This document shows positions 4,452 to 4,704 of a stretch of DNA of 4,704 bases, piece after piece (position 1 is the stretch's first letter; each line of letters begins with the position of its first letter). The position numbers and the translations under genes were made by a program. The stretch is from a virus (Duplodnaviria; Heunggongvirae; Uroviricota; Caudoviricetes): the IMG/VR virus record IMGVR_UViG_2690316115_000002. One strand, written 5' to 3'. Under the pieces are notes generated by a model, which searched no databases, had not been told where the DNA came from, and worked only from the letters and a program-made list of their open reading frames with translations.

Positions 4452-4604
4452 TCAGAATGTCAATTTGTTACTGGATTTACCGAATTTGTCAGACATGGCT
4501 CCCAGGCCAGCCAGGACATCGACCTGTCGCTGTCGCCCACCTCCGTGAGCGGCTGGCTGTTGCCAGTAATCTTCGAAGTGACGATCGGGTCCAAAGAACG
4601 TCGC
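4452..4604 (-). pseudogene. Possible 3' remnant (about 50 codons) of the gene upstream of the loader, truncated by the IS insertion
   Basis: A minus-strand frame is open from the IS boundary to a TGA at 4452-4454, just upstream of the loader start, as expected for an operon partner. Predicted tail ...RHFEDYWQQPAAHGGGRQRQVDVLAGLGAMSDKFGKSSNKLTF. No recognisable motif, so it could be non-coding leader instead. Confidence 0.3.
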
Positions 4605-4704
4605 TGAACCGCCCCGGGAATCCTGGAGACTAAACTTCCTGAGAAAGAGGTAAACAGGATGACTAAAAATACTCGTTTTTCCCCTGAAGTCCGTCAACGG
4701 GCAG
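4605..4704 (+). mobile_element. Left end of an IS3-family insertion sequence (IS629/IS1203-like), continuing beyond the window
   Basis: Sequence from 4605, TGAACCGCCCCGGGAATCCTGGAGACTAAACTTCCTGAGAAAGAGGTAAACAGGATG, matches my recollection of the IS629 left terminus and orfA leader. IS3-family elements start with TG. Only one end is visible, so element length and target-site duplication cannot be checked. Confidence 0.75.
4659..4704 (+). CDS. IS3-family transposase OrfA, N-terminal 15 codons (partial, runs off the window)
   Basis: ATG at 4659 preceded by GAGG/AAGAGG. Translation MTKNTRFSPEVRQRA is the N-terminus I recall for IS629/IS1203 OrfA. Confidence 0.7.
   Translation, partial: MTKNTRFSPEVRQRA

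Follow-up and report, generated by a model that had tools for sequence, protein, structure and literature searches.

An IS629 end lies inside a putative replication initiator gene of a phiP27-like Escherichia coli prophage

When an insertion sequence abuts the replication operon of a prophage, has it landed beside the genes or within one of them, and what does the prophage lose? The question was raised by a window of 4704 nt, meaning the whole stretch of DNA analyzed here, in which the genes for a helicase loader and a replicative helicase are bordered on their upstream side by the end of an IS629-like element. The window is identical, base for base and in reverse orientation, to the complete draft contig CYAY01000106.1 of the E. 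coli assembly GCA_001286405.1. Since the contig is complete and was assembled from short reads, ending 100 bp into a repeated insertion sequence (IS), only a single junction is visible in it. We consider it quite probable that, in a phiP27-like/lambdoid E. coli prophage, transposition placed an IS629 copy in the 3' part of the initiator gene and crippled replication.

The features of the window are collected in Table 1. In the replication module of this prophage, the order of genes is initiator, DnaC-like loader, and DnaB-like helicase. The loader scored 53 bits against Pfam IstB_IS21 (cut-off 24), and PHROG 50, which it also matched, is named "DnaC-like helicase loader". It scored 125 bits against the NCBIfam DnaC equivalog, which is below the cut-off of 357, and is thus a relative of E. 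coli DnaC, not DnaC itself. The helicase gene overlaps the loader stop by 4 nt and is called "replicative DNA helicase" in the RefSeq annotation of relatives. The exact variant of the 85-aa protein is rare (present in 64 index blocks) and was used to locate sister contigs. The loader gene contains a perfect 21-bp tandem duplication at positions 4353-4394 (TRF: 2.0 copies, 100% match), which gives the protein a second MDELRAE heptad; the loader genes of the PhiR49_2 and Stx-phage versions are 21 nt shorter (879 vs. 900 nt).

Table 1. Positions of genes and other features in the 4704-nt window.
Feature	Position	Strand	Basis or remark
Late-gene antiterminator Q	451-846	-	Pfam Phage_antitermQ, E 6e-53; annotated start gives 126 aa
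DUF968/HNH-like protein	849-1844	-	Pfam DUF968, E 5e-81, and HNHc_6, E 4.5e-6; annotated start gives 329 aa
85-aa protein, function unknown	1891-2148	-	PHROG 2565; overlaps helicase stop
DnaB-like replicative helicase, 466 aa	2145-3545	-	Pfam DnaB_C, E 8e-74, plus DnaB N-terminal domain
DnaC/IstB-like AAA+ helicase loader, 299 aa	3542-4441	-	Pfam IstB_IS21, E 4e-14; PHROG 50, E 2e-87
Initiator-gene remnant, codons 279-328 and TGA of the 328-aa variant	4452-4604	-	Identity to intact C-termini
Predicted 3-bp target site CGC	4602-4604		Inferred from the empty site and the known 3-4 bp IS629 duplication
IS629 (IS3 family) left end, cut by contig end	4605-4704	+	Identity to annotated IS629

The element was identified by comparison with an annotated copy. 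Positions 4605-4704 are identical to bases 1-100 of a 1310-bp "IS629 transposase OrfA/OrfB" element in plasmid AP019704.1 (L024, 1501-2810), which bears out an earlier, sequence-only reading of the window that had called the element IS629-like. The IS629 terminal inverted repeat, TGAACCGCCCCGGG, begins at 4605. The orfA gene begins MTKNTRFSPEVRQRA, with its ATG at 4659 on the plus strand and only its first 15 codons inside the window; it is divergent from the minus-strand operon, and the IS is indeed oriented away from the operon as had been stated. In its complete form, IS629 is ~1310 bp long and carries orfA followed by a frameshifted orfB with the DDE transposase, and it ends in a matching right inverted repeat. 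The 100-bp end matches 2880 plasmid records and thousands of places in E. coli chromosomes.

The alignment of every uninterrupted relative to the window ends exactly at 4604, in agreement with the IS boundary first placed at 4605. The same junction is carried by a 4697-bp contig of a second assembly, GCA_017117925.1 (99.98% identity over 4697 bp, one SNP), indicating that it is real and not a chance product. The junction 4604|4605 is common to a small lineage; it had no match in 5426 complete E. coli genomes, the GTDB species representatives, or the JGI metagenomes. A short-read draft contig ending in a multicopy repeat could in principle result from the mis-joining of that repeat at the contig end, with the initiator gene remaining intact in the strain. 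Such an assembly artefact is extremely unlikely, however, as the two assemblies sharing the junction come from different projects and the break coincides exactly with the start of the IS terminal repeat, which is what true transposition would produce.

The empty site was found in four sister contigs (L014, L016, L017, and L021) that are 100% identical to positions 1-4604 of the window and lack the IS. Their upstream gene is intact, encodes 328 aa, and ends 10 nt before the loader ATG. Because this intact gene lies in contigs identical over 4604 bp, the IS can be placed within coding sequence and not in an intergenic region, the insertion point being located after codon 278 of 328. The earlier proposal that the IS landed inside the initiator gene is supported by these contigs, and the suggested comparison with uninterrupted relatives excluded an intergenic flank with an intact initiator gene further upstream. 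IS629 duplicates 3-4 bp of its target, and codon 279 (GCG), the first codon of the remnant, would be a 3-bp target duplication. As sister isolates with 100% identical flanks keep the region intact, the insertion event was recent. An insertion at codon 278/279 of the initiator gene of a DnaC/DnaB module was absent from 5426 complete E. coli genomes, and no published description of one was found. The insertion site is new; the phenomenon is not.

What is left of the initiator gene on the loader side is an open frame of 153 nt with a TGA stop at 4452-4454. Its translation, ATFFGPDRHFEDYWQQPAAHGGGRQRQVDVLAGLGAMSDKFGKSSNKLTF, exactly matches the final 50 residues encoded by the intact upstream gene and is the C-terminus of all four intact variants described below. 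The frame extends for 45 codons antisense into the IS. Its complete list of start candidates comprises TTG at 4697, within the IS, and ATG at 4496 and TTG at 4463, located 14 and three codons before the stop, respectively; the remnant had therefore been rightly described as having no start codon of its own. An exact protein look-up of the 81-aa open reading frame (ORF) with the TTG start gave no record. A public record of an 83-aa "hypothetical protein, partial" at a contig end (P0091) is in the same frame and is an annotation artefact, in which the IS629-antisense frame runs into the final 50 codons of the broken initiator gene. The open frame upstream of the loader had thus been correctly recognized in the sequence-only reading, but the loader start placed next to it (GTG at 4450) was not retained. 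The loader most likely starts at ATG 4441, which is preceded by a GAGGTG Shine-Dalgarno sequence and annotated as the start in RefSeq relatives, and which lies 10 nt beyond the remnant stop.

The interrupted gene was assigned to a family through its intact relatives. Full-length matches to PHROG 270 "replication initiation protein" were obtained with the 274-, 308-, and 330-aa forms (E 2e-90, 5e-81, and 5e-78, respectively), and the NCBI name of the 328-aa protein is "replication protein". In more than 20 loci, the intact gene ends 10 nt before the loader ATG. By these profile matches, the interrupted gene belongs to the PHROG 270 replication initiation family and encodes a putative initiator with a lambda-O-like role. 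No family was assigned to the initiator by NCBIfam (release 20.0) at E <= 0.01, and a PDB sequence search with two initiator variants gave no significant match. In one genome (NZ_CM192147.1, 2530839-2531825), RefSeq calls the 328-aa protein "LvrA C-terminal domain-related protein".

The four length variants of the initiator (274, 308, 328, and 330 aa) have identical C-terminal ~130 aa. A two-residue deletion is the sole difference between the 328- and 330-aa forms; the N-termini of the 274- and 308-aa forms are quite distinct. The protein appears modular, with at least three distinct N-terminal domains (L003, 10452-11444; L005, 9004-9990; L008, 9064-9990; L002, 5127-5951). Pfam HTH_36 was detected in the 274-aa (E 8.5e-11) and 308-aa forms, together with a weak DnaD_N match in the 274-aa form, and Pfam Phage_rep_O (PF04492) had no match at E <= 0.01 in the 274- and 330-aa forms scanned. 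A distant metagenomic homologue of the C-domain (P0101) carries a Phage_rep_O (PF04492) N-terminus, and an N-terminus of the 328-aa type was also observed on another C-domain (PF19481, P0160). A 99-aa ORF (L003, 11441-11740, minus strand) immediately upstream of the 328/330-aa variant matches the HTH N-terminus of PHROG 4617 "replication initiation protein" (E 2e-29) and shares 33% identity with the N-terminus of the 274-aa form. A module swap may have left this DNA-binding domain behind or split it off. In O121 strain RM8352 (L001, 5050-5877), the initiator gene is flagged by RefSeq as a pseudogene "missing C-terminus", which would have made it a second case of decay. The sequence translates to an intact 274-aa protein with a C-terminus identical to that of the other variants, and we rejected this case, as the flag looks like an annotation artefact.

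The position of the break relative to the protein domains was assessed on an AlphaFold2 model of the 330-aa form (alignment of 36 sequences, mean pLDDT 74.6). The model comprises a confident N-domain (residues 1-144), a disordered linker (145-211), a confident helical C-domain (212-~298, pLDDT > 90), and a disordered tail (301-330). In a Foldseek search against the PDB, the top matches of the N-domain were all winged-helix proteins, albeit weak ones (E 4e-3 at best), and the C-domain had no match. Together with the HTH_36 matches, the model points to a putative winged-helix DNA-binding domain at the N-terminus of the initiator. The break corresponds to residues 280/281 of the 330-aa form (278/279 of the 328-aa form) and thus falls within the confident C-domain. 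What is lost are ~18 residues from the confidently folded and most conserved part of this domain, including the motif ATFFGPDRHFEDYW, as well as the C-terminal tail.

In lambda, the C-terminal part of O recruits the P-DnaB complex. The C-domain of the initiator studied here is constant while the DNA-binding N-terminal end varies, and it always accompanies the same loader. By analogy with lambda O, the C-domain probably recruits the phage-encoded loader and helicase. After a simple insertion, the upstream fragment of the gene would stop at the TGA that begins the IS, giving a 279-aa protein without the motif-bearing end of the conserved C-terminal domain and without the tail. Because the C-domain, judging by the roles of O and P in lambda, would recruit the loader and the helicase, the truncated protein would most likely be inactive.

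The lambda origin of replication has iterons inside the O gene. We found iteron-like direct repeats, differing per N-terminal variant, in the linker-coding DNA of intact relatives (L008, 9408-9525; L002, 5540-5690; L017, 1448-1486 and 1513-1536). GC content drops to 0.37 near such repeats, which are few and short in the 328-aa variant. By analogy with lambda O, the linker-coding repeats are candidate origins. In intact relatives, they lie upstream of the break and hence beyond the IS as seen from the loader; an origin therefore need not be lost. Consequently, the loss of the origin that had been suggested from the window is not supported: an origin in the linker-coding DNA would be lost only if the IS had deleted the adjacent DNA.

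Whether such a deletion took place depends on the other side of the IS. In this alternative, the IS would border an IS629-mediated deletion or rearrangement, such as an inversion, that eliminated the N-terminal 279 codons together with the putative origin and perhaps also the immunity region further upstream, leaving only the block from the loader to Q. IS629-associated deletions are reportedly common in O157 genomes, only one junction is in view, and the product of a simple insertion is not on record. For a simple insertion, the right junction is predicted to read from the IS right end (...GGAAACCCGGGGCGGTTCA) through CGC (or TCGC) into AGCCTGCTTCACGAACTG. This arrangement, searched as the IS629 right end followed by 2-5 nt and the continuing gene, was found in neither the GTDB representatives nor the JGI metagenomes. 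An exact look-up of the predicted 279-aa product and of the alternatives with 4- and 5-bp duplications found none of them in a collection of 15 billion proteins, and partial members of the initiator protein cluster were contig-end fragments or other variants, none of them corresponding to the junction. These negative results are weak, since the pattern searches covered collections other than the DNA of the source assembly, and since gene fragments of this kind are usually annotated as pseudogenes, for which no protein is recorded. Moreover, simple insertion is the default outcome of transposition, and the whole region is preserved in sister isolates whose flanks are 100% identical. We therefore regard the deletion as unlikely and a simple insertion as the most likely event. 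The removal of the initiator gene, as proposed earlier, could not be confirmed, as 85% of the gene is expected beyond the IS in the case of a simple insertion.

A simple insertion would also affect the genes downstream of the break. The last 50 codons of the initiator gene stay joined to the loader-helicase-DUF968-Q block, which the break cuts off from the early operon upstream. From the cro-like gene to Q, the genes of intact relatives overlap or follow one another closely, a layout which suggests that they form one early-right operon. If so, the IS would be polar on the loader, helicase, and Q genes as well, with Q being affected as the last gene of this operon. The 1.3-kb IS would separate these three genes from the early-right promoter, and after induction, they would be expressed only by read-through or from weak fortuitous promoters. 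The sequence-only reading had called for a promoter either in the remnant (4452-4604) or in the IS itself. No sigma-70 promoter was detected in positions 4300-4704 or on either strand of IS629 by a strict consensus scan, which weak promoters could escape, and the earlier reading had omitted upstream read-through as a third option. Terminator-like sites occurred only at chance level in the remnant and IS629.

The net effect would be a prophage crippled for autonomous replication and probably also for late-gene activation, one more among decaying prophages, and it is a reasonable inference that this prophage is replication-defective. The insertion could instead be neutral or even activating, provided that the truncated initiator retains its function or a co-resident prophage of the same type complements it in trans, and that the loader, helicase, and Q genes are expressed by read-through or from an outward promoter of the IS. 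In line with this, the last 30 residues of the initiator are predicted to be disordered, the loader has its own ribosome-binding site, and in O157, other prophages help defective ones to replicate and to be packaged (PMC2669165). On the other hand, the truncation reaches beyond the disordered tail into the confidently folded, most conserved part of the C-domain, and a consensus promoter is absent from both IS629 strands and from the remnant, which makes a neutral or activating insertion very unlikely. A more elaborate proposal combines two elements: a prophage in which the N-terminal fragment and the origin persist and which depends on the full-length initiator, of the same N-terminal specificity, of a co-resident prophage, in the manner of the interactions within a "defective prophage pool"; and an uncharacterized lambda-O-like family in which the origin-binding N-domain and the linker iterons are swapped as one cassette onto a constant loader-recruiting C-domain. 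We consider this combination distinctly unlikely.

With a crippling insertion as the preferred explanation, the prophage is best recorded as probably defective in replication and in the activation of late genes. The locus is a clean case of IS629 presence or absence between otherwise identical prophages, and such sites can be used as strain-typing markers. Its value lies mainly in annotation, and with regard to mechanism it adds nothing new.

Finally, we compared the locus to known systems. As in the lambda O-P pair, the initiator gene is followed by the loader gene, and the initiator is predicted to have an N-terminal DNA-binding domain, a flexible linker, and a C-terminal domain. The N-terminal domain is exchangeable in both systems, with the C-terminus co-varying with the loader, and the iteron-like repeats forming the candidate origin are, as in lambda O, inside the gene, in the linker-coding DNA. 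Unlike in lambda, Phage_rep_O had no match in the two E. coli variants scanned, the loader is an AAA+ protein of the DnaC/IstB type instead of P, and the DnaB-like helicase is phage-encoded.

The three-gene module (initiator, DnaC-like, and DnaB-like), followed by the 85-aa, DUF968, and Q genes, recurs in phiP27, PhiR49_2, and Stx phages (LC5678xx) at 93-96% DNA identity. By this shared gene content, the module is of the phiP27/PhiR49_2 type. In these phages, the initiator is annotated as "DNA replication protein O" and is the intact 274-aa HTH_36 variant, and their loaders lack the 21-bp duplication present here. A non-O/P replication region with a DnaB-like helicase has also been described for lambdoid-looking prophages under the name Eru3 of Stx phages (Llarena et al. 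2021, PMC8044961), and the module studied here likewise combines a DnaB-like helicase with a non-O/P organization. A protein comparison led us to reject Eru3 as the module type, as Eru3A is unrelated to the loader and the initiator, and Eru3B is 28% identical to the helicase.

In STEC, IS629 is known as a main cause of prophage gene disruption, and Stx phages that are otherwise identical, for example Stx2a phages, vary mainly through IS629 insertions splitting their genes (PMC4587872). The O157 Sakai prophages include both DnaC-type loader modules and IS-disrupted genes, and defective ones among them can be helped by co-resident prophages (PMC2669165). The locus analyzed here resembles the IS629 polymorphisms of E. 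coli and STEC prophages in having the same terminal 100 bp and a prophage gene split in two, and IS629 presence or absence differs from strain to strain here, as in Stx2a phages (PMC4587872) and the Sakai prophages (PMC2669165). The IS629 insertion in this prophage is an ordinary, already known route of prophage decay.
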